A DNA stretch of 18,184 bases, taken from positions 1 to 18,184 of the IMG/VR virus record IMGVR_UViG_3300045988_007734, one strand, 5' to 3'. The position numbers and the translations under genes were made by a program. Shown piece after piece: positions 1 through 18,184 of the stretch; positions within the stretch are counted from its first letter, which is position 1, and each line of letters opens with the position of its first letter. This DNA is from a virus. A model generated the notes under the pieces. It ran no database searches, was not told the DNA's origin, and saw only the letters and a list, made by a program, of their open reading frames with translations.

Positions 1-55
1 TGTTGTTTTTTGGTGGTGTGGTATGATGTGAGTATCAGCCGATAGGGAAAGGAAA
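1..55. repeat. Left inverted terminal repeat (55 bp perfect)
   Basis: Bases 1-55 (TGTTGTTTTTTGGTGGTGTGGTATGATGTGAGTATCAGCCGATAGGGAAAGGAAA) are the exact reverse complement of 18130-18184. Similarity continues, with an A/T-run indel, up to the ATG at 62 (left) and 18124 (right, minus strand). Confidence 0.95.
19..27 (+). promoter_or_regulatory. Extended -10 promoter element (TGGTATGAT) inside ITR-L
   Basis: TGnTATGAT at 19-27. The SD-like GGGAAAGGAAA at 44-54 and the ATG at 62 follow. I see no convincing -35. Confidence 0.5.
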
Positions 56-61
56 TAAAAA

Positions 62-292
62 ATGAACACCGTTGTTTCGGTTGATTGGTGGCACAAGTCC
101 ATCACAGTAGCATTCACTGACTATAATACCGCGCACTATTTTTCGATAGGCAACGCCGTCACCGTCAAGGGCTCGAAGAGGCGTATGCGGCGTGAACTTC
201 GCAGGGAGACGGGCGTGGAATTGTCTAATCTGAAGTATTGGCGGACGGATGGTTCCGTTGATTATTATTGCGCAAATAGGAAAGGAGAATGA
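62..292 (+). CDS. Early hypothetical protein (76 aa, basic central stretch KGSKRRMRRELRRE)
   Basis: ATG preceded by GGGAAAGGAAA. First gene after ITR-L. Its stop overlaps the next start (ATGA). Confidence 0.7.
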   Translation: MNTVVSVDWWHKSITVAFTDYNTAHYFSIGNAVTVKGSKRRMRRELRRETGVELSNLKYWRTDGSVDYYCANRKGE

Positions 293-522
293 TTGTGAGA
301 GGGTGTTCGTATATCATTGTTGATTGGGATGGCCGCGACTATCTCCAAGTGGAGTCGCCGACTCGTAGTTATCGTGTAGTCCATGCCAAAGACTCTTATG
401 AAGCTTTGCGTAGAGTTCTTCAGATTGAAGGAGTCATATTTTACGCTCATGTTAACCTGCTCTCTTCCGAGTATAACGTTCCAAGCGGATATGTGGCTTA
501 TTATTACAAGGTGGTGTATTGA
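289..522 (+). CDS. Early hypothetical protein (77 aa)
   Basis: ATG at 289 preceded by AGGAAAGGAGA. ATGA overlap with the upstream gene suggests translational coupling. Confidence 0.7.
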   Translation: MIVRGCSYIIVDWDGRDYLQVESPTRSYRVVHAKDSYEALRRVLQIEGVIFYAHVNLLSSEYNVPSGYVAYYYKVVY

Positions 523-523
523 T

Positions 524-592
524 ATGTTCGCTTCGGTGTTTGTTATTTGCGCGTGCGTTCTTGGTGTCGCCGTCGTTTTCGGCATGGTTTGA
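524..592 (+). CDS. Candidate 22-aa hydrophobic micro-protein (MFASVFVICACVLGVAVVFGMV)
   Basis: ATG at 524 lies 9 nt downstream of AAGGTGG (508-514), directly after the stop of the previous gene. The peptide is entirely hydrophobic. It is the 3' part of track ORF 383..592; the rest of that ORF overlaps gene 289-522. Confidence 0.35.
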   Translation: MFASVFVICACVLGVAVVFGMV

Positions 593-624
593 GCGTCTTT
601 AGTCCGATAGGTGGTGATGTTGTA

Positions 625-792
625 ATGGTTGGCGTAATTGTTGCCGTTTGCATTCTTTCCATGCTGTTCCTTGTGATGGCTGCTACAGTTTTTTGCGAAT
701 TGCCGCGCAATGCGCGTGACGTTTTTTGTTTTTTGGTCATGCTCGTTGCGGTCGTGGCTGTTGTATTGGTTTCTGTAGTGAAGGAGTTTTGA
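625..792 (+). CDS. Small early membrane protein (55 aa, two predicted TM helices)
   Basis: The track ORF 547..792 starts at a TTG with no SD. The in-frame ATG at 625 lies 8 nt after AGGTGGTG (609-616). The product MVGVIVAVCILSMLFLVMAATVF...FCFLVMLVAVVAVVLVSVV has two hydrophobic segments. Confidence 0.6.
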   Translation: MVGVIVAVCILSMLFLVMAATVFCELPRNARDVFCFLVMLVAVVAVVLVSVVKEF

Positions 793-793
793 G

Positions 794-1042
794 ATGGCTT
801 ATCGTGATATGAATATTGCCGTGTTTGCGTCTCCGTTTGTTGGCGGTGGCGTAAGGTTGTGGTATTGCCCCCGTAGTCAACGTTACGAGTTGAGGTATAC
901 CGTTCAGTTCCGTACGCCGTGTGGTGGTGTGTGTGGCGCGTCGGCATTGTGTGCGTATGACGCTGGAGACGGTTCTCAGGTGGTCGATTTAATACTTGAT
1001 GCTGTTGATATCGCTAATACGCCTCTTTTAGATAGGGATTAG
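794..1042 (+). CDS. Early hypothetical protein (82 aa)
   Basis: Strong SD GAAGGAG lies 6-7 nt upstream of the ATG at 794. The gene is tightly packed with its neighbours. Confidence 0.7.
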   Translation: MAYRDMNIAVFASPFVGGGVRLWYCPRSQRYELRYTVQFRTPCGGVCGASALCAYDAGDGSQVVDLILDAVDIANTPLLDRD

Positions 1043-1044
1043 TC

Positions 1045-1248
1045 ATGTATTTTCGTGGTTGGATTCATTCGTGGACGTGTGGCAACTGTCCTGACGCTGA
1101 TGCATACTGGCGTTTGCGCGCTTTTTGGGCTGGTGCACGGCATAGGCGTAGCGCTTATAATCCGCCGAAACGGTGCTCTGATAATGCTGTGTGGTTAAAC
1201 ATGTGGTTGTATGGTGCTGGGTTTAGCGAGGATACATTGGAGTTTTAA
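1045..1248 (+). CDS. Early hypothetical protein (67 aa, Trp/Cys-rich, CGNC motif)
   Basis: ATG lies 2 nt after the upstream stop, with a weak SD (AGGGA). Confidence 0.55.
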   Translation: MYFRGWIHSWTCGNCPDADAYWRLRAFWAGARHRRSAYNPPKRCSDNAVWLNMWLYGAGFSEDTLEF

Positions 1249-1250
1249 TT

Positions 1251-1781
1251 ATGAAATTGAAGAATTTGAATTTTGATAAAAGCGATAAACGTACGAACTG
1301 GTTTGATGATGGTGTGCTGGATGATGACCGTGTGCGCCGTGTCATTCGTGGCCGTCGGCGTAGGCTGCACTTGCGCGAATATAATCGAGGTGAGGGCGAT
1401 TGGGAAACATTATGCCGTAGTATAACACTGCTCAAGAACTTTTACAAGCCTCAAGGGTCGCAAGTGGCGTTCGCCGACGGGGTGGAACATGCGGCAAACG
1501 TTTGCTTATCACTGTCCCCTTGCACATCCCGCATCGGGGCGTTGGCGCGAACTCAGGACATTGAAATGTTGGGCGGCGTTATTTATGCTCCGGCTATGGT
1601 GGCGTGGTGCGCCGTCTGTCATGTCAAGGGCGCGACATGCTACGAAATGTGCAAGGTTTGGGATGGCAACGAATTTGCTCAGACTGTCGTCAAAATCGCG
1701 TGTCGATGTTTTGACAATCTGACAGACGTGCGGTATACTGATGAAGACATTGCAAGAATGTCGCAACAGCAGCAACAATAA
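1251..1781 (+). CDS. Early hypothetical protein (176 aa) with Arg-rich N-terminal region, Cys cluster and C-terminal QQQQQ
   Basis: GGAG SD upstream of the ATG at 1251. Features are RGRRRRLHLRE, CxxCx6CxxxC (aa 120-134) and CxC (aa 151-153). This may be a zinc-binding regulator; the function is unknown. Confidence 0.75.
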   Translation: MKLKNLNFDKSDKRTNWFDDGVLDDDRVRRVIRGRRRRLHLREYNRGEGDWETLCRSITLLKNFYKPQGSQVAFADGVEHAANVCLSLSPCTSRIGALARTQDIEMLGGVIYAPAMVAWCAVCHVKGATCYEMCKVWDGNEFAQTVVKIACRCFDNLTDVRYTDEDIARMSQQQQQ

Positions 1782-1798
1782 GATAAGGTGGCATGATT

Positions 1799-2113
1799 AT
1801 GTCATACATTAAGAGAGCCAAGCATTACAGTATCGTGCGCGGCATCATGCGCGGTGAGAACGGTGAACTCGTTGATACCGAGGTAGTCGTGAATGGCGCG
1901 TGTCGTACGGCTGACATGGCTATGAAAAGAGCCCGCAAAATCAACAAGGACATGCTACCCACGTCCGCCGAATATCATGCGCAGGCAACGCGCATGGATG
2001 AAGCGATTTATTGGGCTAATTGTGAATTTGGAGATGATACCACCGTTGACTATCCGGGGCCAGTTAACGGCAACGTGGTTGAAGATGATATCATCACCGA
2101 GGAAAATAATTAA
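1799..2113 (+). CDS. Early hypothetical protein (about 104 aa, acidic C-terminus)
   Basis: The track ORF starts at 1793. The ATG at 1799 has better spacing (7 nt) from AAGGTGG (1785-1791). The start is uncertain by 2 codons. Confidence 0.7.
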   Translation: MSYIKRAKHYSIVRGIMRGENGELVDTEVVVNGACRTADMAMKRARKINKDMLPTSAEYHAQATRMDEAIYWANCEFGDDTTVDYPGPVNGNVVEDDIITEENN

Positions 2114-2140
2114 CAACCCCTATAAGGAAAGGCAACACTA

Positions 2141-2578
2141 ATGGCTGACAACGAACTGACCGTAACAAACGGCAACAACTTTTCCGCAAACGGCACCAAC
2201 GCCGTATCCCACTTCTTCGATACTTCCACGATGGACGGGAAAATGGCGCTGTACACCGCCATGCAGACCGCCGATAAGATAGATGAACACCTTAATGAAC
2301 CGTTGCATGTTACCAACGTGCTGGCGCAGGCCATCGAGGTCGCCAATCAGGAGACTGGCGAAATCAATTCGTCTACCCGCGTAGTCGTTCACGCGGAGGA
2401 AGGCGATTTCGCCGCCGCCTCCCCCACGCTGGCGCACGCATTCGGCAATCTGTTCGCCATTTTCGGCACGCCGGACACGTGGAGCCAGCCACTTGCTCTC
2501 AAGGTGGTGGAAAAGAAGAGTCGTCGTGGCTACAAGTTCTTCGACCTTGAACTAGTGTCGGAAGGCAAGCGTAAGTAA
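2141..2578 (+). CDS. Early protein (145 aa); possible ssDNA/DNA-binding replication accessory protein (position-based guess only)
   Basis: AAGGAAAGG SD. It is the last gene before the TP/DNAP pair, the slot occupied by the SSB/DBP genes in phi29. I recognise no diagnostic motif. Confidence 0.75.
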   Translation: MADNELTVTNGNNFSANGTNAVSHFFDTSTMDGKMALYTAMQTADKIDEHLNEPLHVTNVLAQAIEVANQETGEINSSTRVVVHAEEGDFAAASPTLAHAFGNLFAIFGTPDTWSQPLALKVVEKKSRRGYKFFDLELVSEGKRK

Positions 2579-2606
2579 CACGATTGTCCGCACCGTATGA
2601 TATCGT

Positions 2607-2632
2607 GGCAACGTCCCTATAGGGATGTTGCC
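2607..2632 (+). promoter_or_regulatory. Stem-loop (11-bp stem, TATA loop) in the 2579-2698 intergenic region
   Basis: GGCAACGTCCC-TATA-GGGATGTTGCC, with one G-U pair. Confidence 0.6.
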
Positions 2633-2640
2633 GCCAGACT

Positions 2641-2680
2641 CACCCCCCGCCGTTTCCATCCTTGCGGCGAGGGGTGTTTC
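2641..2680 (+). terminator. Candidate intrinsic terminator/attenuator upstream of the terminal-protein gene
   Basis: CACCCCcCGCCG-12 nt loop-CGGCGaGGGGTG gives 6+5 bp with one mismatch, followed by TTTC. The T-tract is short. Confidence 0.45.
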
Positions 2681-2698
2681 ATACTCACAGGAGGAACC

Positions 2699-3643
2699 GT
2701 GGCAAAACGCAAAAACCGTCGACGCGCTGACAATCTGAAACGCAACGCCGCAATCAGATCGGCACAGGTACGCCGGGAACGAGCAGTCAGAGATTACAGC
2801 GCCGGACGTCTACCCAAGCAAATTACTGAAACGTTCTTGGGGAATCTCAGTGCCCAACAGCTTGAGCAGGTGGCACGACGCATTGGGCGGGAATTTGGAG
2901 AACAACAGCAAGCCTTAAGGGCGCAGGATAACGAGCCGTATCAGGTCGTTCCAGACGTTCATGTTACGAAACTTGACCGTGAGATGGCGTCGCGTCCGCT
3001 GATAACCGATGCGGAAATCGCCGCAGCCCCGTCGAAACGTCGGAAAACGTTACGGCAGCAGCAGCGCCGCCGAGTTGAGGCACGGCAGAAAATCAAGCGT
3101 GCTCAACAATTCGAAGCCTTGAGTATGGCCCGTTATACCGTAGGTGAGATGCGTGAGATGGAACGCGCAGGGGAGTCTCCGTTTGATGTGCTGGGCACTC
3201 ATACGGTCGGCGGTTCGGCACGTGACGAACTCATGCGAAGCCGTGCGAACGTGTTCGGCACAGAGCGTGGAATAAGCCATGCACGCGCGATGATTCGAGG
3301 GGGGAGCCGTAGGAGGCTTGAACGGGAGATGATTGAATACGCCGGACTTATTGGACGTGCGCCGCTAAGCGCGGGAACTAGGCGTATTCCCGAGGACGAG
3401 GGTGTTTCGGATTTCGATAAGGTCGCGCAACAGCTCGAAGCGTTCGATTCCAGCGTAGCTCAAAGACTCGCTTCTTTGTCTAACCGTCAAAAACGATGGC
3501 TGATAAACAACACGAATTTCAGCGTTGTCGTGCGCGAGGCTACATGGTATAATGACAAGGCGCACAAATGGGAGACCAAAGCGGACGCGGGAGATGTAGA
3601 GACACGACTTGATGAATGGATGGCCAGCGCAATAAGACACTAA
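2699..3643 (+). CDS. Terminal protein (TP) candidate, 314 aa
   Basis: It lies immediately upstream of the protein-primed DNAP, like gene 3 before gene 2 in phi29. The N-terminus is strongly basic (VAKRKNRRRADNLKRNAAIRSAQVRRERAVR) and Arg-rich helical segments follow. A GTG start at 2699 lies 4 nt after AGGAGGAA. The upstream in-frame extension to 2597 runs through two stem-loops and has no SD. The function rests on synteny, size and charge only. Confidence 0.55.
   Translation: MAKRKNRRRADNLKRNAAIRSAQVRRERAVRDYSAGRLPKQITETFLGNLSAQQLEQVARRIGREFGEQQQALRAQDNEPYQVVPDVHVTKLDREMASRPLITDAEIAAAPSKRRKTLRQQQRRRVEARQKIKRAQQFEALSMARYTVGEMREMERAGESPFDVLGTHTVGGSARDELMRSRANVFGTERGISHARAMIRGGSRRRLEREMIEYAGLIGRAPLSAGTRRIPEDEGVSDFDKVAQQLEAFDSSVAQRLASLSNRQKRWLINNTNFSVVVREATWYNDKAHKWETKADAGDVETRLDEWMASAIRH
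3545..3553 (+). promoter_or_regulatory. Possible internal extended -10 (TGGTATAAT) about 105 nt upstream of the DNAP start
   Basis: TGGTATAATGAC matches TGCTATAATGAC at 5112-5123 in 11 of 12 positions. It lies inside the TP coding sequence and may be fortuitous. Confidence 0.3.
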
Positions 3644-3658
3644 AAAAAGGATGGAATC

Positions 3659-5119
3659 ATGCGAGAGCGTCGAACGGCGGCAACAGACGGCGCAACACTA
3701 TTGACGGATGACGGTATAACGCCATTGACGGCGAATGCCGTTATCCGCCTGACCATGCTAGACCATCATACGCGCGTATGGTGCGCTCACGGATGGCAGG
3801 ATATCAAGCCCATAGCCGCTGAACTATTAAAACGACTGCCATTGCAATCGAATCCGGCAAAGGATGGCGTTTGGGGTACGTTCAACATTCGCGGTCATTT
3901 CTATAGTTTCCGCGTGCGCATGGGCGGCATCACCGTGGATTTTCTGGACGTGCGCAACATCACACGCGATGACGGATTGAATGTTTCGCGTGAAGCATTT
4001 GGTGGCGCGGACGACTTGGAAACCACGTGGAATATCGCGCGGGAATGTGAGGCCCTGAATCTCAAGGGTACAACCATAGCGTCTATGGCAATGGGCGATT
4101 ACATCGGCGGAGATTACGCCGGATTTAAACGCAATTTTCCGCCATTGGATAAAGCGGAATATCACCGGATGCGCCGCGCGTACTATGGGGCGATAGTGTA
4201 CAGCAGGCCGGGCGAATATCGGGATTGCAGGAGCTGGGATGTGAACAGCCTCTATCCGAGCATCATGCGAGACCTTGCCATGCCGGTAGGCGCTCCTGTA
4301 TGGTATGGGGGAGAATATCATTATGACGCCGATTATCCCCTGCATATCGATGTTATCGCGTTCGACGCGCGACTGAAACCGGGAAAAACGGCGACGCTCA
4401 CAAATATCCTACCAGTATGGGGATATGAGGGCGAACGTCTGGACAGTACGCTAGGGGTCGTCACCATGCCCGTGACCGACGTGGATTGGCAGACCTTGAC
4501 GGAAAACTATGATGTCCATGTGTGGGATTATATCGGCGGTTGGAAATTCCGTAAATCGCATGGACTTTATTACAGCTACGTTGACAAATGGTTCCACGTG
4601 AAACAGACCGCAACCGGAGAGCGTCGGCAAATGGCGAAACTATTACTAAACTCGCTGGTAGGGAAATTCGGGGCATCGCTTTATCGGCCTATGCTGCATC
4701 CGAAGCCTTCCGGCGACGGCGGCGTGGATTTTACAGTGGACAAACCTGAGTCAACCAACTCACTCGCATGGCTACCGACCGCCGCCTATGTCAACGCCTA
4801 CGGTCGGCAAATACTGTCCCGCGCAATGAATGCGAACGCCGACCGCGTGCTCTACGCCGACACGGACGGCATGATATTGGACGGACTGGATGCGCCCGCA
4901 GGTATCGAAACGGACGATAAGAAACTAGGCGCGTGGAAAAACGACCACACCTATGGAAAACTTCGTATCCTCGGCAATCGCAAATACTGCGGTGTGGAAA
5001 CGGACGGCGATACCGTCATGAGGTTGAGTGGCGTGCATCGAGCAGCCCCCATACCCTACGACGACTTCCTGCCGAGGTCACGCCATGTCAACGATGACGG
5101 ATGTTTTTTTGTGCTATAA
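3659..5119 (+). CDS. Family-B, protein-primed (phi29-type) DNA polymerase, 486 aa
   Basis: Motif A DVNSLYPS (aa 194-201), motif B KLLLNSLVGKFG (327-338), motif C LYADTDG (398-404) and KxY (RKY, 441-443). Inter-motif spacings are within 1-2 residues of phi29 DNAP, so TPR1/TPR2-sized insertions are retained. The pre-motif-A stretch FKRNFPPLDKAEYHRMRRAYYGAIV parallels phi29 FKKVFPTLSLGLDKEVRYAYRGGF. SD AAGGATGG. Confidence 0.92.
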   Translation: MRERRTAATDGATLLTDDGITPLTANAVIRLTMLDHHTRVWCAHGWQDIKPIAAELLKRLPLQSNPAKDGVWGTFNIRGHFYSFRVRMGGITVDFLDVRNITRDDGLNVSREAFGGADDLETTWNIARECEALNLKGTTIASMAMGDYIGGDYAGFKRNFPPLDKAEYHRMRRAYYGAIVYSRPGEYRDCRSWDVNSLYPSIMRDLAMPVGAPVWYGGEYHYDADYPLHIDVIAFDARLKPGKTATLTNILPVWGYEGERLDSTLGVVTMPVTDVDWQTLTENYDVHVWDYIGGWKFRKSHGLYYSYVDKWFHVKQTATGERRQMAKLLLNSLVGKFGASLYRPMLHPKPSGDGGVDFTVDKPESTNSLAWLPTAAYVNAYGRQILSRAMNANADRVLYADTDGMILDGLDAPAGIETDDKKLGAWKNDHTYGKLRILGNRKYCGVETDGDTVMRLSGVHRAAPIPYDDFLPRSRHVNDDGCFFVL

Positions 5120-5120
5120 T
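5112..5120 (+). promoter_or_regulatory. Perfect extended -10 promoter (TGCTATAAT) overlapping the DNAP stop codon
   Basis: TG-C-TATAAT at 5112-5120, preceded by a T7 run. The predicted transcription start is near 5127. Confidence 0.55.
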
Positions 5121-5126
5121 GACCGG

Positions 5127-5290
5127 TAGCGGGGTGTGCGTCCCAAGCTGATTCAATGGCCCGACCGGTGGGCAATCGGTAAGGCGATTCGGTCGGATGT
5201 AGACGTGCGTAGCCAACGCCCATTGACGGCGAGGGAACCCGCACAGCCTAGCAATCCGGCACGGCAGCGTGATTGCCGCCGTGCCATTTT
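5127..5290 (+). ncRNA. Candidate structured non-coding RNA or leader (about 164 nt) with a three-way-junction-like fold
   Basis: There is no plausible ORF in 5120-5305. The region is bounded by the extended -10 at 5112-5120 and a terminator at 5258-5290. A long closing helix and two internal hairpins can be drawn by hand (see findings). Confidence 0.5.
5258..5290 (+). terminator. Intrinsic terminator at the early/late boundary
   Basis: GGCACGGCaGC-GTGATT-GCcGCCGTGCC gives 10 bp plus one A/C mismatch, followed by ATTTTACTT. It ends 16 nt before the scaffold gene ATG. Confidence 0.6.
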
Positions 5291-5305
5291 ACTTAAGAGG
5301 TGATT

Positions 5306-5647
5306 ATGGACGACACCGAAAATGATGACAAGCCGGACACCACGCCCGACACCGAGCCGGACGCGAACGCCGACGACAATACGCCGAACCCGGAGCCTGA
5401 AACGCAGGACGACGCCGAGCCTGAAGACGCGGGCGACGACAAAACCGCCGACATGGCCGGCCGGTTGAGCGCATTGGAGGCGACCGTGGCGGAACTGTCC
5501 AAAACCGTCGAGGCGATGCGCGACGCGGCAGCAGACCACGTGCTGCACGACGGCCCCGATGATGACGCGACGCCGGAATCGGCTGAAATGACCGACGACG
5601 ACTACAACGGCACCTACAGCACGTTCGACGACTTGTACGAAGACTGA
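5306..5647 (+). CDS. Scaffolding protein candidate (113 aa, highly acidic with a central helical LSALEATVAELSKTVEAMRDAAA segment)
   Basis: It lies immediately upstream of the major capsid gene, as phi29 gp7 does. The protein is small and acidic with a coiled-coil-like core. ATG at 5306 follows AAGAGGTGA; the track start at 5300 is a GTG. Confidence 0.6.
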   Translation: MDDTENDDKPDTTPDTEPDANADDNTPNPEPETQDDAEPEDAGDDKTADMAGRLSALEATVAELSKTVEAMRDAAADHVLHDGPDDDATPESAEMTDDDYNGTYSTFDDLYED

Positions 5648-5669
5648 CAATTAGGAAGGAACAACTATC

Positions 5670-7400
5670 ATGGCAACCACCCCAGTGGTGACGCCGAAGC
5701 AGCAACTGCGCCCGCTCACCGAATTCAACAACGCCCAGATTTTGAACATGATTCGCAACGAGGCGTCACCAGAGTACCAGAGGCGCATGCCCTCGGCCAC
5801 TCAGATGAATATGGACAGGCAGATGGCCACACTTATGTCGTCCACCCAGCTGAAGAACGAATTTTACTCGGCATTGGTGAACCGTATTGGCGGCACCTAC
5901 GTGAATACGTGGCGGTGGAACAATCCGCTCAGCGTTTTCCAGCGTGCATCGCAGGCGTATGGCGACACGTGGCAGGAAATCGCCGTGGGAATGCCGCTTG
6001 CACAGGTCTATGACCCTGACGCGGAGTACCTCGGTGCGGACAACTTCCGCAAGTGGAAAATCGACGTGGATTCACTCTATCACCGTCTGGACTTTGCTCA
6101 CTGGTATCCTGCGACCACGGATGACAAGACGCTCCAGCGTGCCTTCACGTCCGAAAACGGTTTGGCATCGCTCACCTCCCAGATTCTCACATCCTGCTAT
6201 AACGCGGCTGAAGTAGACTTGTTCGAGGCTCTGTGCCATCAGTTCGTCGAGTACGCGAAGCTCGGCGGATATTGGCGCGTCCACATGGCCAAAGACCTGA
6301 ACAACATGGGCAGTTCGGAAACCGACGCCCGCGACATGTTGCGTCAGATTCGCGCATGGGCGGACACGCTAAAATTCGTTTCCACCAAGTACAACGCCCG
6401 TCACATGCCAACCTTTGCCCGCCCGGACGAACTCGTGCTGTTCTGTTCGCCAGAAGTCAAGTCGGCGCTTGACGTGCAGGGCCTTGCCACGGTATTCCAG
6501 CGTACCGACGCCGAGCCGACCATCGACCGAATTATAGTCATTCCGCAGGACCGTTTCGGCATGAATGGCGTGCAGGCCATTCTGACGACCGACAAGTTCC
6601 TGATTGACATTCCTGTCATCAACGAGATGACCCAGCAGACCAACCCCGTCAACATCAATTCGGTCAACCATTATCTGCATGTCCAGCACATTATTTCGGT
6701 GTCCGGCTTCGCTCCGGCTGTGATGTTCTGGACTGGAGCAGGTTCTACCGCCAACGTGGTGCCCCCTGCCGGAACGCAGGCCAAGACGCCGACATTCGAG
6801 CTCAAACTCGCCATGTACGGTGGTGGCACGGAAACCCCGAGCAATGTGGCGCGCGGTGGCGCGGTGCAGGTCACCGCCGATACGACTATCGGCAACGACG
6901 GTACCGCCACGTTCCGTTCGAACGCGGTTGAATATCGCATTGGCGATACTGTTAAGCCGAAGAGCGATTACACGTATATCTCGCCTACCGGCGTGCTGGT
7001 GGTCGGCCTTGACGAACCGAACACCACCATCCCGATTACCGCAACCGCCTTGTACACGAACCCGGCGACGCCGGAAGTGCCGGGCACCGTGTCCGCAGCT
7101 CTGGACGTGCCGGTGGTCGGTGATGGCGTCATTGGCTTCAACCCCTCCATCATCGCGTCCATTGCCGTGACCGTTCCGAACGTGACCGTAGAACATACGG
7201 CGCAGGCTACTGCCGTGGCGACCATGATTGACGGACGTACCGCCGACGTGACCGCACAGGCCGCATGGACGTCCGGCACTCCGACGAGCGCCACCGTATC
7301 CGAGTCCGGCATGGTGACTGGCGTCAAGGCAGGCAGCTCTGATATCACCGCCACGCTGTTCGGCGTGTCCGGTAAGAAGAGTGTGACCGTGACCGCGTGA
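5670..7400 (+). CDS. Major capsid protein (phi29 gp8-like) with C-terminal Ig-like/Big_2 decoration domains
   Basis: YNAAEVDLFEAL and NHYLHVQHIISVSGFAPAVMF resemble phi29 gp8 YNSAEVDEYEYM and NYYLHVWQTLSASRFANAVAF. The last ~80 aa (ASIAVTV...TAQAAWTSGTPTSATVSESGMVTGVKAGSSDITATLFGVSGKKSVTVTA) form a typical Big_2 domain, which phi29 gp8 also carries. SD AGGAAGGA. Confidence 0.9.
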   Translation: MATTPVVTPKQQLRPLTEFNNAQILNMIRNEASPEYQRRMPSATQMNMDRQMATLMSSTQLKNEFYSALVNRIGGTYVNTWRWNNPLSVFQRASQAYGDTWQEIAVGMPLAQVYDPDAEYLGADNFRKWKIDVDSLYHRLDFAHWYPATTDDKTLQRAFTSENGLASLTSQILTSCYNAAEVDLFEALCHQFVEYAKLGGYWRVHMAKDLNNMGSSETDARDMLRQIRAWADTLKFVSTKYNARHMPTFARPDELVLFCSPEVKSALDVQGLATVFQRTDAEPTIDRIIVIPQDRFGMNGVQAILTTDKFLIDIPVINEMTQQTNPVNINSVNHYLHVQHIISVSGFAPAVMFWTGAGSTANVVPPAGTQAKTPTFELKLAMYGGGTETPSNVARGGAVQVTADTTIGNDGTATFRSNAVEYRIGDTVKPKSDYTYISPTGVLVVGLDEPNTTIPITATALYTNPATPEVPGTVSAALDVPVVGDGVIGFNPSIIASIAVTVPNVTVEHTAQATAVATMIDGRTADVTAQAAWTSGTPTSATVSESGMVTGVKAGSSDITATLFGVSGKKSVTVTA

Positions 7401-7406
7401 TATAAT
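7398..7406 (+). promoter_or_regulatory. Extended -10-like element (TGATATAAT) overlapping the capsid stop codon
   Basis: It is part of the exact 12-mer GTGATATAATGG (7397-7408), which is repeated at 9815-9826. It abuts the hairpin at 7407-7434, so promoter activity is uncertain. Confidence 0.35.
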
Positions 7407-7434
7407 GGGAGGGTAGCCGATTGGCTACTCTCTC
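7407..7434 (+). terminator. Stem-loop immediately after the capsid gene (12-bp stem including G-U pairs, GATT loop)
   Basis: GGGAGGGTAGCC-GATT-GGCTACTCTCTC. There is no clean U-tract. Confidence 0.45.
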
Positions 7435-7450
7435 TCACGGTGTGATGCAG

Positions 7451-7495
7451 GACAAGGCCCGAAGCGTAATCTACGTGAGCGCTCCGGGCCTTGTC
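7451..7495 (+). terminator. Strong GC-rich stem-loop (11-bp perfect stem) upstream of the tail-knob gene
   Basis: GACAAGGCCCG-23 nt-CGGGCCTTGTC. There is no U-tract. The 3' arm ends 5 nt before the GGAGGA SD at 7501-7506. Confidence 0.5.
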
Positions 7496-7508
7496 ATACC
7501 GGAGGACA

Positions 7509-9818
7509 ATGATGATTGACGACGCTAACCCTTACGTGGAATCTAATTTTTCGTGGGCGGAATGGACGCCTAACACGACACTGAAACTCTGCCGTGTACC
7601 GTGGGATGCTTCATATCGTGATGTTGTGCGGTTTGTTTCACGTGAAACGCAGCGAGAATGGTTCGACAAACTGGGTGGAGTGGAATGCCGTCCGGCCACC
7701 ATGCATATTTTCGGCGCCCCCGTTCGCATCGACATGCCATTCAACCAAGCGTCAAACTACAATTATCTTGTGGCCGTCAACGATTACCCCGAATTGGAAT
7801 CGCCACGCGCATGGTATTACTTTATTGAATCCGTGGAATACATCAACGCGCACACCACACAGCTCACGCTTATGCTGGACGTATGGCAAAGTTTCGAGTT
7901 TGACGTGAGTTTCGGTAGTTGCTATGTGACGCGCGGTCATATCGGCATAGCCAATGAACGCCAGTGGGATGATTACGGGCGTACCACGCTTGCACTGCCG
8001 GAGGGTTTGGACACCGGCGCGGAAACCGTCATTACCTCACAGTCATATACGCCGCTTGTGACCAGCAAGCCCGTGCAGCCCGGGTTTAACTCGCCAACCT
8101 TGGATTATGGTGTCATTGTCGTGGCCACGACCGACCTTGTGGCGTCGGGCGGTAGTACCGAAAAACCGTCGTTGAAAACCGCGCAAGGCTCACAATTCGA
8201 GAATCAATCCAATGGCGCGGGGATTTATTATTTTGACACCGCCGACGATTTTACGCGCGTTATGCAGGCAGGTAGTTCGTACCCGTGGGTCACTCAGGGC
8301 ATTACGGCGATTTACGCCATCCCCAAAATCAGCGCCGACTATATCCGCAGCGCAGGCCATGAGGTGACGCAATTTTTTGGCAACGACGTGGCCGGTGTGG
8401 TTAAAGGCCACGTCTACACGTTCCTGTGGGAAGCAAAGAGCGATAACCGATATGATGATATTGTTTCCATCAAGAATTTTCGTAACAATTTTAACATTCC
8501 GAGCCGGTATCGCAATTTGAAAAAATTGCAATGCTACCCGTATAGTGTCGTGGAATGTTCATGCTTGAATGGCTCGAATGTCATCTACCGGCCCGAGGAT
8601 ATCCAATCCAATGACCTGACCATACGTGAAACGTGGAATTACGCGCCCCCGTCCCCTCGGCTGAATTTTTACCCGGTGGACTACAATGCGGGAGGCGCAG
8701 CTACGGTCAGCTCCCCGTCCGGGAATGGCACAGGTCTGCCGATTGATGGCGGGGAAATGCTTAATGTCAGTTTCGGTATCACAAACTTTCCCCAGTTTAT
8801 GGCGGTCAACAATGGGGCCGCGCTTGCTATGGCGAACAGCGCGTACTCTCGCGCTTACGCGGAGCAGTCTGCCGGTTGGGCGCAGCAAAAAGCGACCATG
8901 AGCGCAGCCAACGCATTATCTCAGGCCGGCACTGCGATTCGCACTCAGCAAGAGATGACCCAACTGGGTATCACGAACCGTAACGCGCTGAACGCCATCG
9001 CAGCCAACTCACTTAACCAGTCGTTGGCTATCGGGCAGGCGAGCACCAATGCCATGACCAACTTGAACGTATCGCAAAACAACGCGCGAACCACGTGGGG
9101 GTTGATTTCCAATGCGGGGAACGCATTGGCGTCGGGGAGCGTGGCCGGACTGATTGGCGGCGCAGTCGGCGCCATCGGCGGCGTCGTGCAGAACGACATT
9201 GCCAACAAGGGACTGTACGCCAGCCGTGACATTGCCAACGATACGGCAGCGGCGAACACTGCCAACAGTGTGGCAACCAATGCGGCGCAAACCTCGCAAG
9301 CGAACACTTACGCGCAACGCGCCCAGCAGATTCAGAGCACGTCCAGCGCCCTGATGGCCGGGCAAAACTATCGACTGGCCACGCGCTTTGCCGAAGGTGA
9401 CTATGAAAACTCGATAGCCGGGATTAACGCTCAAGTCCAGCAAATGCAGATGACTCCGCCGACTACGAGCGGTTCGGCGGGCGGCGACTCGTTCAACCTC
9501 GCTAACGGTATTATGGGCATATTGGTTCGTTTCCGCACGTGCGCCCCCAGCGCGTTGCGTTCGGTGGGCGAGTTCATGCTACGTTTCGGGTATTTTGTCC
9601 AGCGGTTCGTCACCCCGCCCGCAAGTCTGCAATGCATGGAGAAATTCACATACTGGCAAATGCAGGAATGCTACATTAAAGGTACACTGCCCGAACAGGC
9701 GCGGCTGACCATTAAGGGCATGTTCGAGCGAGGCGTCACCGTATGGAGCAGACCGGAGGATATCGGCGTGACCGACTGGGCGGACAACGAGCCACTGCCG
9801 GGCATTGGTTACGAGTGA
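7509..9818 (+). CDS. Tail knob / distal tail tube protein (phi29 gp9-like), about 769 aa
   Basis: The N-terminal pattern NYNYLVAVNDYPELESPRAWYYFIESVEYINAHTTQLTLMLDVWQSF parallels phi29 gp9 [44 protein letters not shown]. Its position between capsid and portal matches phi29. The start is ATG 7509 or 7512 after GGAGGA; the track start at 7491 is a TTG inside the hairpin. Confidence 0.8.
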   Translation: MMIDDANPYVESNFSWAEWTPNTTLKLCRVPWDASYRDVVRFVSRETQREWFDKLGGVECRPATMHIFGAPVRIDMPFNQASNYNYLVAVNDYPELESPRAWYYFIESVEYINAHTTQLTLMLDVWQSFEFDVSFGSCYVTRGHIGIANERQWDDYGRTTLALPEGLDTGAETVITSQSYTPLVTSKPVQPGFNSPTLDYGVIVVATTDLVASGGSTEKPSLKTAQGSQFENQSNGAGIYYFDTADDFTRVMQAGSSYPWVTQGITAIYAIPKISADYIRSAGHEVTQFFGNDVAGVVKGHVYTFLWEAKSDNRYDDIVSIKNFRNNFNIPSRYRNLKKLQCYPYSVVECSCLNGSNVIYRPEDIQSNDLTIRETWNYAPPSPRLNFYPVDYNAGGAATVSSPSGNGTGLPIDGGEMLNVSFGITNFPQFMAVNNGAALAMANSAYSRAYAEQSAGWAQQKATMSAANALSQAGTAIRTQQEMTQLGITNRNALNAIAANSLNQSLAIGQASTNAMTNLNVSQNNARTTWGLISNAGNALASGSVAGLIGGAVGAIGGVVQNDIANKGLYASRDIANDTAAANTANSVATNAAQTSQANTYAQRAQQIQSTSSALMAGQNYRLATRFAEGDYENSIAGINAQVQQMQMTPPTTSGSAGGDSFNLANGIMGILVRFRTCAPSALRSVGEFMLRFGYFVQRFVTPPASLQCMEKFTYWQMQECYIKGTLPEQARLTIKGMFERGVTVWSRPEDIGVTDWADNEPLPGIGYE

Positions 9819-9824
9819 TATAAT
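9816..9824 (+). promoter_or_regulatory. Extended -10 element (TGATATAAT) placed 6 nt upstream of the portal ATG
   Basis: TATAAT at 9819-9824, then GGCAAT, then the ATG at 9831. The 12-nt intergenic gap has no SD, which is consistent with a leaderless portal mRNA. Confidence 0.45.
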
Positions 9825-9830
9825 GGCAAT

Positions 9831-10781
9831 ATGAGTAGGTCTAAAAAGAATCGAGTTGGCGGCGCGTTGCACCCACGTGGCAATTATGCGAAAGCACGCG
9901 CCGCCACGCTTGATGACATGTATTTTCATTTGCTGATGGAACTCGCATTGAACCGTTTCAGTTGGCGCGGATTGCCGCCCACCGTGGACGAACGTTGGCT
10001 GGAAATATGTCTGTGCGAATATGGTTGCGCGTTGTTTTTCGAAGACAAGCGTATCGGCAGGTTCCTTGTAACGCAGGCCGGTTATCAAGGTCGGCTGAAC
10101 GTGTACAATAATCCAACATGCTTCGAGCCGGTAGGCGTCAACTACCATTATAAGCAGCTCAAAGCAGGGGCGGAATGCATTCCTATCTGGGATAATCGAA
10201 TGCGCGTCGGATTCAAGCCGACATTATGGCAATACGCACGACGACTTGCCGATATCGACAAGGCGTATGATGTGAATTTGGAGAGTCTTAAGCTGCCTAC
10301 CATCATCACTGCCGACCCCCGCACAAAACTCACCGTGCAGAACATGCTTCAGCAGCGTCAGGACGGTCAGGACTATATTATCGGATACGATTCGCTCGAC
10401 CCCGGCAGCATGTTTCAACCGTGGCCGAACACTACGCCTTACCTGCTGGACAAGTTCATCCAACAGAAAGCGCAGGTCACTAACGAAGTGCTAGGATATC
10501 TCGGCATCCAATCATCCGGCACGGAGAAAAAGGAACGGCTTATCTCCGACGAAGTGGCGCAAGCCAACGAGAAAGTAGATGTGTTCCGACTGAGTTTCCT
10601 GAAGGCGCGGCAGACGGCGGCAACTGAGATTAACCGATTATGGCCGCAACTGAACGTGTGGGTGGAGTATGCTGACGCGCAAAGCTCCGGCGTGCCCAAC
10701 GCGCTTGACTCTAGCGCTTCGGGCACGACGGATGTTGACATGCCCGCATCATACGACGCGGGCACTGGAGGTGTATTGTGA
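9831..10781 (+). CDS. Portal (head-tail connector / upper collar) protein, phi29 gp10-like, 316 aa
   Basis: FSWRGLPPT (phi29 FEWENLPPT), VYNNPT, and GTEKKERLISDEVAQANE (phi29 LEKKERMVTDEVSSNDE). The size matches gp10 (309 aa). Confidence 0.9.
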   Translation: MSRSKKNRVGGALHPRGNYAKARAATLDDMYFHLLMELALNRFSWRGLPPTVDERWLEICLCEYGCALFFEDKRIGRFLVTQAGYQGRLNVYNNPTCFEPVGVNYHYKQLKAGAECIPIWDNRMRVGFKPTLWQYARRLADIDKAYDVNLESLKLPTIITADPRTKLTVQNMLQQRQDGQDYIIGYDSLDPGSMFQPWPNTTPYLLDKFIQQKAQVTNEVLGYLGIQSSGTEKKERLISDEVAQANEKVDVFRLSFLKARQTAATEINRLWPQLNVWVEYADAQSSGVPNALDSSASGTTDVDMPASYDAGTGGVL

Positions 10782-11566
10782 CACAGGATTTTAGCGCCTA
10801 CGCTATGGAGACTCCCGGCGAGTACACCGAAACCCTCGGTAATCTTATTGCATTCGGATATGACACCGACGACAAGCTGCATCTTAGCGCCGACTATTAC
10901 CCGATTTACCGCGAAGACCATCGCGCAGAGTTGAACGAGAAGATCGTCCGCCATTACACGCTTAGGGAGATTGGTCAGGAAACCGCCCAACAGTTCATTT
11001 TTTACTTGGGAATGACAATGGCGGAAATCATGCCCTATTTTAACGAGCGCTACCGGACGCTGGACATGGAATACAACCCGTTGGATTCCATGGACATGAC
11101 GACGGACAGCGAGAGCGGCAGCGAATCACAGTCGTCCGGCAAAGCATCCAGTACGCAGGATTCAACCAGCTCCAGCAATAGCAAGTCGGACAATTCCAGC
11201 ACCACCACGTCGAAGAGTTTTGACAGTGACGTGCCTCAGACCGGCGTCATAGGCGATTTCGCCCGCTACGCCTCACATGCGAACGAATCGCAGGCGGACA
11301 GCTCCGGCACCGCGTCCAGTTCGCAGGATTCAAGCAGCCACACCACCGCGCAAAGCGCGACCGACTACCAACACGATTCAAGCAATTCCAAAGGCAAAAG
11401 CCACGTGACCGGGCGTAGCCAGAGCGCTATGAGCCTGATTCAGGAATACCGGCAGGCGATTATCAACGTGGACATGGAAATCGTGCGGAATCTTGAGCCG
11501 TGTTTCATGCAGGTATGGGGCACGTATGATACAATCTTTAACAACCACCATAACTATGGAGGGTGA
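10778..11566 (+). CDS. Lower collar protein (phi29 gp11-like), 262 aa
   Basis: GTGA start/stop overlap with the portal gene, with GGAGG 8 nt upstream. IYREDHRAELNEKIVRHYTLREIGQETAQQFIFYLGMTMAEIMPYFNERY fits the conserved N-terminal block of Picovirinae lower collar proteins. There is a long Ser/Thr/Asp-rich central segment. The position matches phi29. Confidence 0.7.
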   Translation: MTQDFSAYAMETPGEYTETLGNLIAFGYDTDDKLHLSADYYPIYREDHRAELNEKIVRHYTLREIGQETAQQFIFYLGMTMAEIMPYFNERYRTLDMEYNPLDSMDMTTDSESGSESQSSGKASSTQDSTSSSNSKSDNSSTTTSKSFDSDVPQTGVIGDFARYASHANESQADSSGTASSSQDSSSHTTAQSATDYQHDSSNSKGKSHVTGRSQSAMSLIQEYRQAIINVDMEIVRNLEPCFMQVWGTYDTIFNNHHNYGG

Positions 11567-11574
11567 AAGTAATC

Positions 11575-12210
11575 ATGGTCGACATTAATGCACTAATCCC
11601 ACGGCAACGCTTGTTCGACGGAGTGCCCACGTCCGTACCGTTCACCTACCGGGACGGCTTGACGACATTGCAGTTAATTGAATGCCTGAAGCATAATCTA
11701 GACACGCTTCAGTGCGACCTTAGCAGGTTGGAAGACGCCACCACCGACCTCGCGACATCTGTAGACAAGGCTCTGGCGGATACCGTGGCACAGCTCAATC
11801 ATGACATGGCCGCGTTGCGTGCGGAATTGCTCTCGCTGATTCATGAGATGGAGCAGCAGGGTGCGGCGACGTCGCCGGTCTACGGCATCACGCAACCGCT
11901 CGGGCAAGTACTGGGCGGCATGTACGACAATTTGCGCAATCATGGATTGTTCTTCGGTGATTATGATTCCATGCAGTTGACCGCGCGGGAATACGATGGG
12001 CTCACCCTCGGAGCGCGTGAATATGACTTGCGCGCCACTGCTGTGGACAATTGTGTCCCCGGCGATTTTCCGGGCCGCTCACAATTCCCCTACGGCAAGA
12101 GCATGCCTGAGAATCCACCCGCCGACATGTCGTTCATCACACAATCGGAAGCGGATGCACGATATGTCGAACGCAATCCAACCGCAGACAATTTCGACAA
12201 GAAAGGATAA
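11575..12210 (+). CDS. Virion structural protein, coiled-coil (neck/tail-associated), about 211 aa
   Basis: It sits inside the tail module. It has a helical heptad-like region (DLSRLEDATTDLATSVDKALADTVAQLNHDMAALRAELLSLIHEME) and a short tandem motif LTAREYDGLTLGAREYDL. The start is ATG 11575 or GTG 11563. Confidence 0.6.
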   Translation: MVDINALIPRQRLFDGVPTSVPFTYRDGLTTLQLIECLKHNLDTLQCDLSRLEDATTDLATSVDKALADTVAQLNHDMAALRAELLSLIHEMEQQGAATSPVYGITQPLGQVLGGMYDNLRNHGLFFGDYDSMQLTAREYDGLTLGAREYDLRATAVDNCVPGDFPGRSQFPYGKSMPENPPADMSFITQSEADARYVERNPTADNFDKKG

Positions 12211-12215
12211 CCACC

Positions 12216-12635
12216 ATGACCGCAACCAACAAGACCACGAATTACAAACTCAGCCAGTTCGTCGGCACCGACCGACCTACGTGGCTCGGGGACTACAACG
12301 GCGATATGTCGAGAATCGACACGCAACTGAAGCAGAACGCGGACGACATCGCGTCGGCAACAGCAGGCAGTCTCACCTCAGTACACCATACCGCCGACCT
12401 TACCGGCGACGGTACGTCAGGCTCACCACTTGGCGTGGCGAGCACCATCGCCAAGAAAACCGATATCCCGGACGTGAGCGGATTCGCCACCACTTCCGCT
12501 CTCACCTCGGGGCTTGCGGCCAAGGTCGATAAAAACGCCTCACAGCCCAGCACGCTCGGATTGACGGCGACCGAACTTGATTCGATGTACAAGGACGCGA
12601 ACGGCATCGTCCGCGTTGGCCACGCTAAAGCCTAG
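12216..12635 (+). CDS. Short tail appendage/fibre protein (139 aa) sharing an N-terminal adaptor with the next gene
   Basis: SD AAAGGA. The N-terminus MTATNKTTNYKLSQFVGTDRPTWLGDYNGDMSRIDTQL aligns with the N-terminus of the 12652 gene. Confidence 0.7.
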   Translation: MTATNKTTNYKLSQFVGTDRPTWLGDYNGDMSRIDTQLKQNADDIASATAGSLTSVHHTADLTGDGTSGSPLGVASTIAKKTDIPDVSGFATTSALTSGLAAKVDKNASQPSTLGLTATELDSMYKDANGIVRVGHAKA

Positions 12636-12651
12636 AAAAAGGAGAATGACA

Positions 12652-14100: not shown

Positions 14101-14123
14101 ACGTTTCACGTGAGACATAACCC

Positions 14124-14152
14124 ATACCCCACGGCTCGAAGCCGTGGGGTAT
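14124..14152 (+). terminator. Stem-loop terminator after the appendage genes (12-bp perfect stem)
   Basis: ATACCCCACGGC-TCGAA-GCCGTGGGGTAT followed by the A/T-rich ACTATTATATAT. Confidence 0.6.
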
Positions 14153-14162
14153 ACTATTATAT

Positions 14163-15428: not shown

Positions 15429-15431
15429 TAT

Positions 15432-15467
15432 AACGATAGACCGGTAGATATCTGCCGGTCTATCGTT
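15432..15467 (+). terminator. Stem-loop terminator after the tail lysin gene (13-bp perfect stem)
   Basis: AACGATAGACCGG-10 nt-CCGGTCTATCGTT. Confidence 0.6.
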
Positions 15468-15473
15468 GTCGTG

Positions 15474-15482
15474 TGATATGAT
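15474..15482 (+). promoter_or_regulatory. Extended -10 element (TGATATGAT) placed 7 nt upstream of the ATPase ATG
   Basis: GTGATATGATGG (15473-15484) differs at one base from the 12-mer at 7397 and 9815. No SD precedes the ATG at 15490. Confidence 0.45.
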
Positions 15483-15489
15483 GGATACT

Positions 15490-16587: not shown

Positions 16588-16595
16588 GGAATAAC

Positions 16596-16961
16596 ATGCC
16601 AATCCATGAATTAATCGTTATCGGCGTCGTGTTTCTATTAGTGCTCATTGACTATGTGACGGGCGTGGTCAACGCAATCATGCGCGGAGAATTATCTAGC
16701 GAGAAAATGCGGAGGGGTCTCGGCCATAAGTTCGCATACTTGGCAATTATTTGCGTCGCATTGATTGTGGAATACGGTTCGGATTACATTGACCTAGGCA
16801 TCGAACTACCGGTATTCATTCCGGTTTGCGTAGGCATTTGCCTGATTGAAATTACCTCAATCATGGAAAATTGCGTAAAAATCAATCCAGAATTAAGCGG
16901 TTCAAACATCCTGAACATTTTCAATATCGAGAGGAGGGAAAACAATGATAAAGAGGATTAA
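16596..16961 (+). CDS. Holin (phi29 gp14/TcdE-type, Phage_holin_4-like), 121 aa
   Basis: Three hydrophobic segments. LIDYVTGVVNAI...SSEKMRRGLGHKFAYL...CLIEITSIMENCVKINPE is the typical signature. ATG 16596 lies 5 nt after GTGAGGA. Confidence 0.8.
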   Translation: MPIHELIVIGVVFLLVLIDYVTGVVNAIMRGELSSEKMRRGLGHKFAYLAIICVALIVEYGSDYIDLGIELPVFIPVCVGICLIEITSIMENCVKINPELSGSNILNIFNIERRENNDKED

Positions 16962-17070: not shown

Positions 17071-17072
17071 AT

Positions 17073-17923: not shown

Positions 17924-18124
17924 TCACACCTCCTCAAACGCTTCAATAAAATCATCAGCCGGAAACGAGTCACAATCATCATATTTCTCAATAGTCATAT
18001 TGTTGACCAAAGCCACATAATGCAGATCCTCGACAATCGCGTCAATATCGAAACCATCAAGCTGCTGATAGTTGTCCAAGATGTAATCCTCGACGTAATC
18101 CTTAATGATGCTGTTGTTAATCAT
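17924..18124 (-). CDS. Right-end early protein, 66 aa, extremely acidic
   Basis: It is the only minus-strand gene. Its ATG lies 61 nt from the right terminus, behind the ITR promoter/SD copy. It has 18 Asp/Glu against 2 Lys and 1 His. Confidence 0.75.
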   Translation of the reverse strand: MINNSIIKDYVEDYILDNYQQLDGFDIDAIVEDLHYVALVNNMTIEKYDDCDSFPADDFIEAFEEV

Positions 18125-18129
18125 TTTAT

Positions 18130-18184
18130 TTTCCTTTCCCTATCGGCTGATACTCACATCATACCACACCACCAAAAAACAACA
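18130..18184. repeat. Right inverted terminal repeat (55 bp perfect)
   Basis: Exact reverse complement of 1-55. Confidence 0.95.
18158..18166 (-). promoter_or_regulatory. Extended -10 promoter element inside ITR-R (mirror copy)
   Basis: This is the same TGGTATGAT read on the minus strand. It drives the 66-aa minus-strand ORF, whose ATG is 61 nt from the right terminus. Confidence 0.5.

Follow-up and report, generated by a model that had tools for sequence, protein, structure and literature searches.

The DNA considered here is positions 1 to 18,184 of IMG/VR virus record IMGVR_UViG_3300045988_007734 (the window, 18,184 nucleotides (nt)), an almost complete genome of a phi29-like podovirus with all of its large open reading frames (ORFs) on the + strand. 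At positions 3659 to 5119 it encodes a protein of 486 amino acids (aa) related to the DNA polymerase of Bacillus phage phi29 (phi29 DNAP). An earlier note on this DNA had described a protein-primed polymerase of the phi29 type in which the N-terminal domain (N-domain) is shortened and the exonuclease site incomplete. This description stands, being supported by profile matches, by alignments and by the occurrence of the full set of exonuclease residues in 0/21 members of the short family to which the protein belongs, as against 24/24 canonical relatives. Sequence and structural models together make it probable that the enzyme is a natural proofreading-deficient replicase which has retained its exonuclease domain as a scaffold. 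The features of the gene are as follows.

3659..5119, + strand: phi29-type DNA polymerase, 486 aa (PF03175, phi29 DNAP 1xhx, PHROG 1907, AlphaFold, Foldseek)
3659..4075, + strand: miniaturised, degenerate DnaQ-type exonuclease-like domain, aa 1-139 (hhalign, models, residue tables)
4238..4258, + strand: motif A, DVNSLYP (D194; phi29 D249), an invariant column in alignments A1, A2 and A4
4274..4564, + strand: TPR1 insertion, approximately aa 206-302 (phi29 261-358), from full-length hhalign
4637..4666, + strand: motif B, KLLLNSLVGK (K327, N331, G335), the Tyr of Kx3NSxYG being replaced by Val334
4685..4753, + strand: TPR2 beta-hairpin, approximately aa 343-365 (phi29 398-420), from hhalign, with model strands at 345-350 and 356-361
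4853..4870, + strand: motif C, Y399-ADTDG (D401, D403), invariant in 84/84 close homologues and in A1, A2 and A4
5024..5116, + strand: shortened thumb, 31 aa against 46 in phi29 (hhalign, MAFFT), with R455 at the position of K529

Judged by its alignments, the polymerase half of the protein is intact and collinear with that of phi29, with palm, fingers, TPR1, TPR2 and motifs A, B, C and KxY all in place. Sequence-to-profile methods detect this half only. The match to Pfam DNA_pol_B_2 (PF03175; 111.3 bits against a cutoff of 25.8, 7.5e-32) covers only aa 133-341, the phmmer match to phi29 DNAP in the PDB (1xhx; E 8e-44) only aa 155-444, which fall on phi29 206-501, and PHROG 1907 is matched at 1.6e-51. 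Profile–profile alignment of the short family with its canonical relatives (hhalign) spans aa 23-478 with a probability of 100% and includes TPR1 and TPR2, which are aligned without large gaps over phi29 261-358 and 398-420. The earlier note was thus right to call this half collinear, and right also to place motif A at aa 194 rather than 249, since D194 is confirmed and nt 3659-4240 correspond exactly to aa 1-194. Motifs A, B, C and KxY (here R441-K442-Y443) are all invariant across 84 close homologues. The protein belongs to the protein-primed family B DNA polymerases (pPolBs), whose profile, catalytic motifs and family-specific TPR1 and TPR2 insertions it shows.

As the Pfam and PDB matches begin past residue 130, consideration was given to the explanation that the short N-terminus is an artefact, whether of a misassigned start, of a frameshift or of a gene decaying to a pseudogene in a defective genome. 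No support for this was found. The ATG at 3659 lies 15 nt past the stop codon of the upstream ORF and is preceded by a GGA-rich ribosome-binding site. More than 80 homologues from independent metagenomes share both the length of 486 aa and the start, which argues against an annotation artefact, and the identical polymerase is found on several contigs of ~18 kb. Cultured phages carry polymerases of 445-471 aa. The N-domain, moreover, is modelled with a predicted local distance difference test score (pLDDT) of ~90 and is conserved like the rest of the protein. A wrong start or a truncated gene is effectively refuted by the upstream stop, the homologue lengths and the folded, conserved N-domain, and an artefact of any of these kinds is scarcely credible.

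The N-domain comprises 139 aa, compared with 189 aa in phi29. An AlphaFold model built from 36 homologues has a mean pLDDT of 90.9 and a predicted template modelling score of 0.88, the blocks of the N-domain scoring 87-96. Searched against the PDB with Foldseek, the model matches phi29 DNAP (2pyj_B) along the entire crystal structure (572 alignment columns), with a query TM-score (TMq) of 0.85; the best match in BFVD is the polymerase of phage BadAztec1 (TMq 0.87, root-mean-square deviation 2.1 Å). A profile of the N-domain alone aligns with the canonical exonuclease-domain profile at a probability of 90.7% (hhalign, E 1.3e-6). The canonical relative P0101 (559 aa) was modelled likewise (pLDDT 93.7), and the order of elements is the same in both models: beta1-beta2-beta3-alphaA-beta4-alphaB, three strands, short helices, the ExoIII helix, a 7-residue linker and a conserved Thr. 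All elements of the N-domain are shorter than in P0101, for example:

beta1: 9 residues in P0101, 6 in the polymerase studied
beta1-beta2 loop: 8 in P0101, 3 in the polymerase studied
beta2: 8 in P0101, 4 in the polymerase studied
coil preceding the ExoIII helix: 23 in P0101, 4 in the polymerase studied
ExoIII helix: 23 in P0101, 14 in the polymerase studied

On these models the N-domain is a compacted DnaQ/DEDDy exonuclease fold, ~50 residues shorter than that of phi29, and neither a new domain nor the outcome of domain loss. An unrelated new domain is ruled out by the profile alignment of the N-domain alone, by the matching topology and by the Foldseek result. The structure prediction proposed in the earlier note accordingly upheld its short N-domain whilst revealing a well-folded exonuclease-like domain instead of a lost one. 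The note had also counted ~55 residues as missing between ExoII and ExoIII. The total is correct but the location is not, as the 55 are divided among four intervals: N-terminus to ExoI (2), ExoI to ExoII (16), ExoII to ExoIII (32) and ExoIII to motif A (5). The beta-hairpin region at aa 72-121 (3872-4021) gives weak repeated matches to the designed beta-trefoil ThreeFoil (PDB 3pg0) and, in the large profile search described below, to LVIVD-repeat and EPTP-repeat proteins; this similarity was judged to be spurious and to stem from the pattern of beta-strands.

The exonuclease site of phi29 DNAP is made up of the carboxylates D12, E14, D66 and D169, together with Y165 and the auxiliary K143 (PMC4974454). 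Seven alignments (three by MAFFT, four by hhalign) and the helix registers in the two AlphaFold models served to map the residues of the present N-domain onto this site. No DxE, Nx2-3[F/Y]D or Yx3D motif is present within aa 1-139, in agreement with the earlier note, and no alignment offers a counterpart of E14, N62, K143, Y148 or Y165. A 27-residue deletion takes out phi29 141-167, and with it K143, Y148 and Y165; position 115 is Gly. The pairs H44-H61, G45-N62 (with G45 invariant), Y82-Y101, D97-D121 and T139-T189 are robust, the Asp of the pair D97-D121 being the last residue of its strand in each of the two models. D119 falls on D169 in all seven alignments and by counting back from the helix end in both models. 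The placement of D48 is less uniform: hhalign puts it on D66 (posterior ~0.2), the ungapped MAFFT alignments and the helix register on F65, the canonical Asp being the fourth residue of alphaB, where D48 is the third and I49, the fourth, lies on D66. D10 falls on D12 (alignment A4 and hhalign in global mode) or on E14 (alignment A2). It is the sole acid at the end of beta1, with neighbours A8 and A12, and these partner positions vary among close homologues (A/V/T at position 8, A/V/T/S at position 12).

This mapping departs from the alignment made by eye in the earlier note. The segment TRVWCAHGW, which had been aligned with ExoI so that E14 became His, forms beta4 and the ExoII loop (H44-H61, G45-N62). 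The supposed ExoII, FNIRGHFYSF, in which D66 had been read as His, aligns with phi29 SRMGQWYMI (Y82-Y101), the hairpin carrying Y101. At ExoIII the register was six residues off, so that D119, rather than N125, lies on D169 (seven alignments, two models), and Y165 has been deleted, not replaced by Glu. The conclusion that every acidic residue had been lost rested on this alignment and was overstated, since D10, D48 and D119, invariant in 84/84 close homologues, lie on or within one residue of D12 (or E14), D66 and D169. The profile alignment which the note had suggested as a check went against it in placing Asp near the D12, D66 and D169 positions, and in its favour in leaving E14, N62, K143, Y148 and Y165 without counterparts.

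The protein does not qualify as a DEDDy exonuclease, for it has the fold but, as aligned, not ExoI, ExoII or ExoIII. At ExoI neither reading of D10 yields the two carboxylates of DxE. At ExoII N62 is represented by G45. At ExoIII, though D119 lies on D169, both Y165 of Yx3D and K143, the Lys of Kx2hxA, are absent. There is no Tyr or His general base in any alignment, and the single-stranded DNA-binding motif (S/T)Lx2h reads VRNI.

Despite this, the N-domain is kept under purifying selection, to judge from the 84 close homologues, and is conserved like the polymerase half (pairwise identity 88.9% against 87.6%). The conserved residues are D10, H44, D48, Y82, D97, D119 and T139. Several points weigh against a proofreading-deficient enzyme. 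The hhalign posterior for the residue mapping in the exonuclease segments is just 0.1-0.3. D10, D48 and D119 are not only invariant in the close homologues but kept down to ~47% identity, and as profile alignments put them on D12, D66 and D169, a reduced metal site is conceivable. Finally, seven small early ORFs (62-2113) have no match to a Pfam or PHROGs family, and the function of several of them is not assignable.

The second of these points bears on the explanation that the N-domain has kept its 3'-5' exonuclease activity in a minimal, rewired site, where D10, D48, D119 and perhaps H44 or D97 bind metals, so that proofreading would persist without the textbook motifs. The invariance of all five residues in 84/84 close homologues, the hhalign placement of D10, D48 and D119, and purifying selection as strong as that on the polymerase half all speak for such a site. 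It would, however, have to operate with no second ExoI carboxylate, given the variation at positions 8 and 12, with no Tyr or His general base and with no equivalents of K143 or Y148, whilst D48 is, by helix register, displaced by one residue in alphaB. The conservation of D119 has an alternative reason in helix capping, since the residues which occur at position 118 (D, N, T and S) are those typical of a helix N-cap, and D119 is the first residue of the helix. Moreover, D48 and D119 are not conserved in distant members of the short family, including those of cultured Bifidobacterium phages, and the thumb ligands for primer transfer are absent. An active, rewired site is on this evidence conceivable but unlikely, and a proofreading-deficient enzyme with a retained exonuclease fold is preferred.

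The wider family provides further evidence for the loss of catalysis. The canonical set (n=24) consists of gut Clostridia-type phages, phi29, DK1 and four actinophages (of Curtobacterium, Microbacterium, Arthrobacter and Actinomyces), and in all 24 of these pPolBs D12, E14, N62, D66, K143, Y148, Y165 and D169 are kept. The tunnel residues Y101 and T189 are retained in the polymerase studied as Y82 and T139. What is left of the exonuclease residues in the short family differs by lineage. The subclade of the present polymerase, to ~47% identity, keeps D10, D48 and D119; P0135, P0137 and P0129 keep DxD at ExoI but no residues of ExoII or ExoIII; equivalents of D48 and D119 are missing from the cultured Bifidobacterium phages, two of which, BD811P2 and BP1, show an additional deletion across the ExoIII region. 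Such a mosaic is the pattern expected from relaxed selection on catalysis.

Loss of the exonuclease site is not a general trait of phi29-like actinophages, as DFETT, HNLKFD and YxxxD are all present in those of Curtobacterium, Microbacterium, Arthrobacter and Actinomyces. A hidden Markov model of the N-domain found only 21 matches among 1.84 billion representative proteins. The genuine matches are all short pPolBs or fragments of them, so that the variant is limited to a narrow clade, and multi-stretch matches to LVIVD-repeat proteins are spurious. With tblastn, the N-domain alone had no match in 50,697 phage records; the N-domains of the cultured Bifidobacterium phage polymerases are too divergent to be found in this way. 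Some gut pPolBs of intermediate length, P0099 (537 aa) and P0104, P0111 and P0117 (526 aa), have partly eroded Exo motifs, with examples such as DID for DFE, N62 to Gly, D66 to Leu and D169 to Arg or Ser. Judging by these sequences, proofreading may have been eroded more than once among gut phi29-like phages.

At the C-terminal end the protein has lost further material. The earlier note had put the thumb ~30 aa shorter than in phi29; the region past motif C is indeed 34 aa shorter, but not all of this is thumb, ~17 residues being accounted for by the palm hairpin (phi29 503-525) and ~15 by the thumb. The phi29 thumb residues K538, K555, K557, Q560, T571, T573 and K575 have no counterparts in the hhalign or MAFFT alignments. 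They are DNA-binding residues in phi29, where they serve to coordinate synthesis and degradation (PMC1475753, PMC4974454); two of them, K557 and K575, make contact with the terminal protein (TP) as well. The loss of primer-guiding thumb ligands along with the exonuclease residues fits an enzyme which no longer moves the primer end to an editing site. In motif B, the Tyr equivalent to phi29 Y390 is Val or Ile throughout the short family, whilst canonical relatives mostly have Tyr, with Ser in CI461P1. Y390 of phi29 has been implicated in the selection of deoxynucleoside triphosphates. The change from Tyr to Val may thus be a second one relevant to fidelity.

Two genes upstream of the polymerase encode its probable partners.

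2141..2578, + strand: phi29-type single-stranded DNA-binding protein (SSB) (Pfam PF17427 9.1e-13; PHROG 6243 2.6e-15)
2597..3643, + strand: candidate terminal protein, directly 5' of the polymerase (position, synteny)

The candidate TP is 348 aa long as listed, although a GTG at 2699 is likely to be the true start, giving a protein of 314 aa, as called in the sister contig L013. TP genes are found at this position in phi29, Av-1 and the Curtobacterium and Microbacterium phages, and the product of the candidate gene is 30-31% identical to those of the syntenic ORFs of BD811P2 and BadAztec1; the similarity of the longer ORF begins at residue 39 (BadAztec1) or 81 (BD811P2). Position and synteny make it likely that this ORF encodes the terminal protein. 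BLASTP found no detectable similarity to the terminal proteins of phi29 and Av-1. The candidate is very rich in Arg, Lys and Gln.

Scans of all 23 main ORFs against Pfam and PHROGs revealed no exonuclease or helicase family. This result bears on the explanation that proofreading is provided in trans, by a small early phage protein or by a host DnaQ-like exonuclease, so that overall fidelity is normal. Room for such a protein exists among the seven early ORFs with no family match, one of which encodes 176 aa and has a conserved position in related phages. This ORF (1251-1781) specifies several Cys residues (CAVCH...C..MC...CRC) and a poly-Gln tail, and ORFs of similar size are found at the same position in BD811P2 and BadAztec1. 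None of the early ORFs, however, matches a Pfam or PHROGs exonuclease family, and the 176-aa product has no match in a sequence search of the PDB either. No precedent is known for proofreading in trans among pPolBs. The phi29 polymerase proofreads intramolecularly and wraps around the DNA (PMC4974454), so that a trans-acting nuclease would have little access. Restoration of fidelity in trans is for these reasons very unlikely, and a replicase which works with little or no proofreading is again the preferred reading.

The remainder of the window conforms to a phi29-like genome. Genes 3' of the polymerase encode a phi29-type major capsid protein, tail knob, connector, lower collar, gp16 packaging ATPase, holin and amidase. 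The ends of the window and the packaging gene are as follows.

1..61, no strand assigned: left arm of the inverted terminal repeat (ITR), inner part only; 61 nt, 97% complementary to 18124-18184, to which sister contigs add 155 nt outward
18124..18184, no strand assigned: right arm of the ITR, inner part only, to which sister contig L014 adds 72 nt identical to the left-end extension
15466-16587: gp16-type packaging ATPase

The extensions past the two ends, contained in L013:1-216 and L014:4041-4184, consist of the same T/G-rich sequence in inverted orientation. As sister contigs run past both ends, the window must stop inside the ITR, which in reality measures 133 nt or more, and perhaps 216 nt or more. 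A complete genome with TGTTGT as its physical end is thereby ruled out. The ITR of phi29 is by contrast 6 nt long, and the length found here is closer to that of Cp-1-like phages.

The sister contigs, several of ~18 kb, come from human gut metagenomes and encode an identical polymerase and endolysin. Megablast of the window against the 50,697 phage records gave no match. At the protein level the nearest cultured relatives are the Bifidobacterium podophages BD811P1-3, BadAztec, BadAargau and BP1, with a polymerase identity of 35-37% and a gene order in common with the window, and a homologue with 88% polymerase identity has been deposited as a protein of a Bifidobacterium breve metagenome-assembled genome. 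The virus is a phage of the human gut, and its host is most probably Bifidobacterium.

Several other features of the sequence may be recorded. The + strand of the left end (1-1500) is rich in G and T, with a GC skew of +0.26 to +0.28 and an AT skew of -0.28 to -0.31, and its G+C content is 47-48%, compared with 53-61% in the rest of the genome; a second stretch of low G+C content (42-47%) spans the packaging ATPase and holin region at 15.5-17 kb. A palindrome with a perfect gap (18+18 nt, 94%) lies at 15432-15467, just 5' of the packaging ATPase gene. An Rfam scan of the whole window at gathering thresholds gave no match, and hence no phi29-type packaging pRNA despite the gp16-type ATPase. A hairpin with a 20-nt stem at 17877-17920, between the convergent endolysin gene and the last ORF, on the minus strand, is probably a bidirectional terminator. 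A 507-aa protein of the tail/appendage region (12577-14100) contains a GDSL/SGNH hydrolase domain (Pfam PF13472, 4.6e-13) and may, on the strength of this match, be a receptor-modifying esterase.

A number of parallels can be drawn with known systems. The polymerase resembles phi29 DNAP (gp2; 1XHX, 2PYJ) in being a protein-primed family B enzyme, in motifs A, B, C and KxY, in TPR1 and TPR2, in its overall fold and in the DnaQ-like topology of its N-domain. The two genomes are alike in the order SSB, TP (here the candidate) and polymerase, in their ITRs and in their genes for capsid, connector, tail and packaging ATPase. They are unlike in that the polymerase studied has a shorter N-domain and thumb, lacks the palm hairpin 503-525 and has Val in motif B, and in that its candidate TP has no detectable similarity in sequence. 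The closest parallels are the polymerases of BadAztec1 (YP_009857352), BD811P2 (YP_010756021) and BP1 (XPO95121), which share the short length (445-471 aa), the gene order and the erosion of the Exo motifs. Public records of the cultured relatives label the polymerase plainly as 'DNA polymerase'.

Loss of proofreading is itself not without precedent. In the pPolBs of mavirus-type and polinton-like viruses, likewise protein-primed, it has occurred by reduction of the exonuclease domain; there, in contrast to the present case, the domain is a remnant or absent and a superfamily 3 or superfamily 1 helicase has been gained, whereas here the fold is conserved and no helicase was found (PMC11161782). 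The eukaryotic Pol alpha and Pol zeta (PMC7544198) and the phage enzyme divPolA1 (PMC11348598) have, in the same manner as the polymerase studied, kept an exonuclease-like domain in which the catalytic residues are replaced, and divPolA1 also combines an inactivated exonuclease domain with a truncated thumb (PMC11348598). These three differ in belonging to RNA-primed PolB or to PolA lineages, and none serves a small, linear, protein-primed genome as its only replicase. No earlier description of exonuclease-deficient pPolBs in Bifidobacterium or phi29-like phages was found in the literature searched, and a 2024 review of phi29-like phages, which covers Badaztecvirus, makes no mention of a missing exonuclease site.

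The following picture is proposed. The enzyme would replicate the linear genome, bounded by inverted terminal repeats, of a phi29-like podovirus, its partners being the product of the upstream ORF, as likely TP, and the phi29-type SSB. As the polymerase half is complete, TP-primed, processive and strand-displacing synthesis is expected as in phi29 DNAP; replication would start at the genome ends by protein priming and proceed by processive strand displacement. Missing from the catalytic apparatus are the second ExoI carboxylate, the ExoII Asn, the Lys of Kx2hxA, Tyr148 and the ExoIII Tyr. In phi29 the tunnel between the exonuclease domain and TPR2 underlies strand displacement, Y101 and T189 line this tunnel, and mutants in the exonuclease metal ligands are defective in strand displacement (PMC6351526); R96 of the exonuclease domain contacts the terminal protein (PMC4974454). 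The N-domain may similarly have been retained here because, with TPR2, palm and fingers, it would form a narrow tunnel for the downstream template which forces the strands apart, and because of its presumed contact with the terminal protein. Editing would be absent or very weak, and fidelity would derive from nucleotide selection alone. Given an N-domain which is conserved, well folded and exonuclease-like, the absence of proofreading, or at least its strong reduction, is likely. Cultured relatives with the same short polymerase (BD811P1-3, BadAztec and BP1) propagate, and their existence makes the question directly testable.

The proofreading domain has been regarded as near-universal in family B replicases. 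On balance it is plausible that there exists a clade of gut phages, some of them cultivable, in which a dsDNA genome of ~18 kb is copied by a naturally proofreading-free, protein-primed, strand-displacing polymerase with no compensating exonuclease or helicase. If so, the exonuclease fold would survive in these phages solely as a structural support for TP binding and the template tunnel, and their polymerase would be a compact, natural, ready-made exonuclease-minus enzyme, usable in amplification or sequencing chemistry in place of engineered phi29 DNAP. Should the activity indeed be gone, these phages would represent a natural experiment separating the structural role of the exonuclease domain, in strand displacement and TP binding, from its catalysis. 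Mutation rates would be one to two orders of magnitude above those of other dsDNA phages, and the sequences of the Bifidobacterium phages abundant in the guts of infants and adults would be expected to evolve unusually fast.

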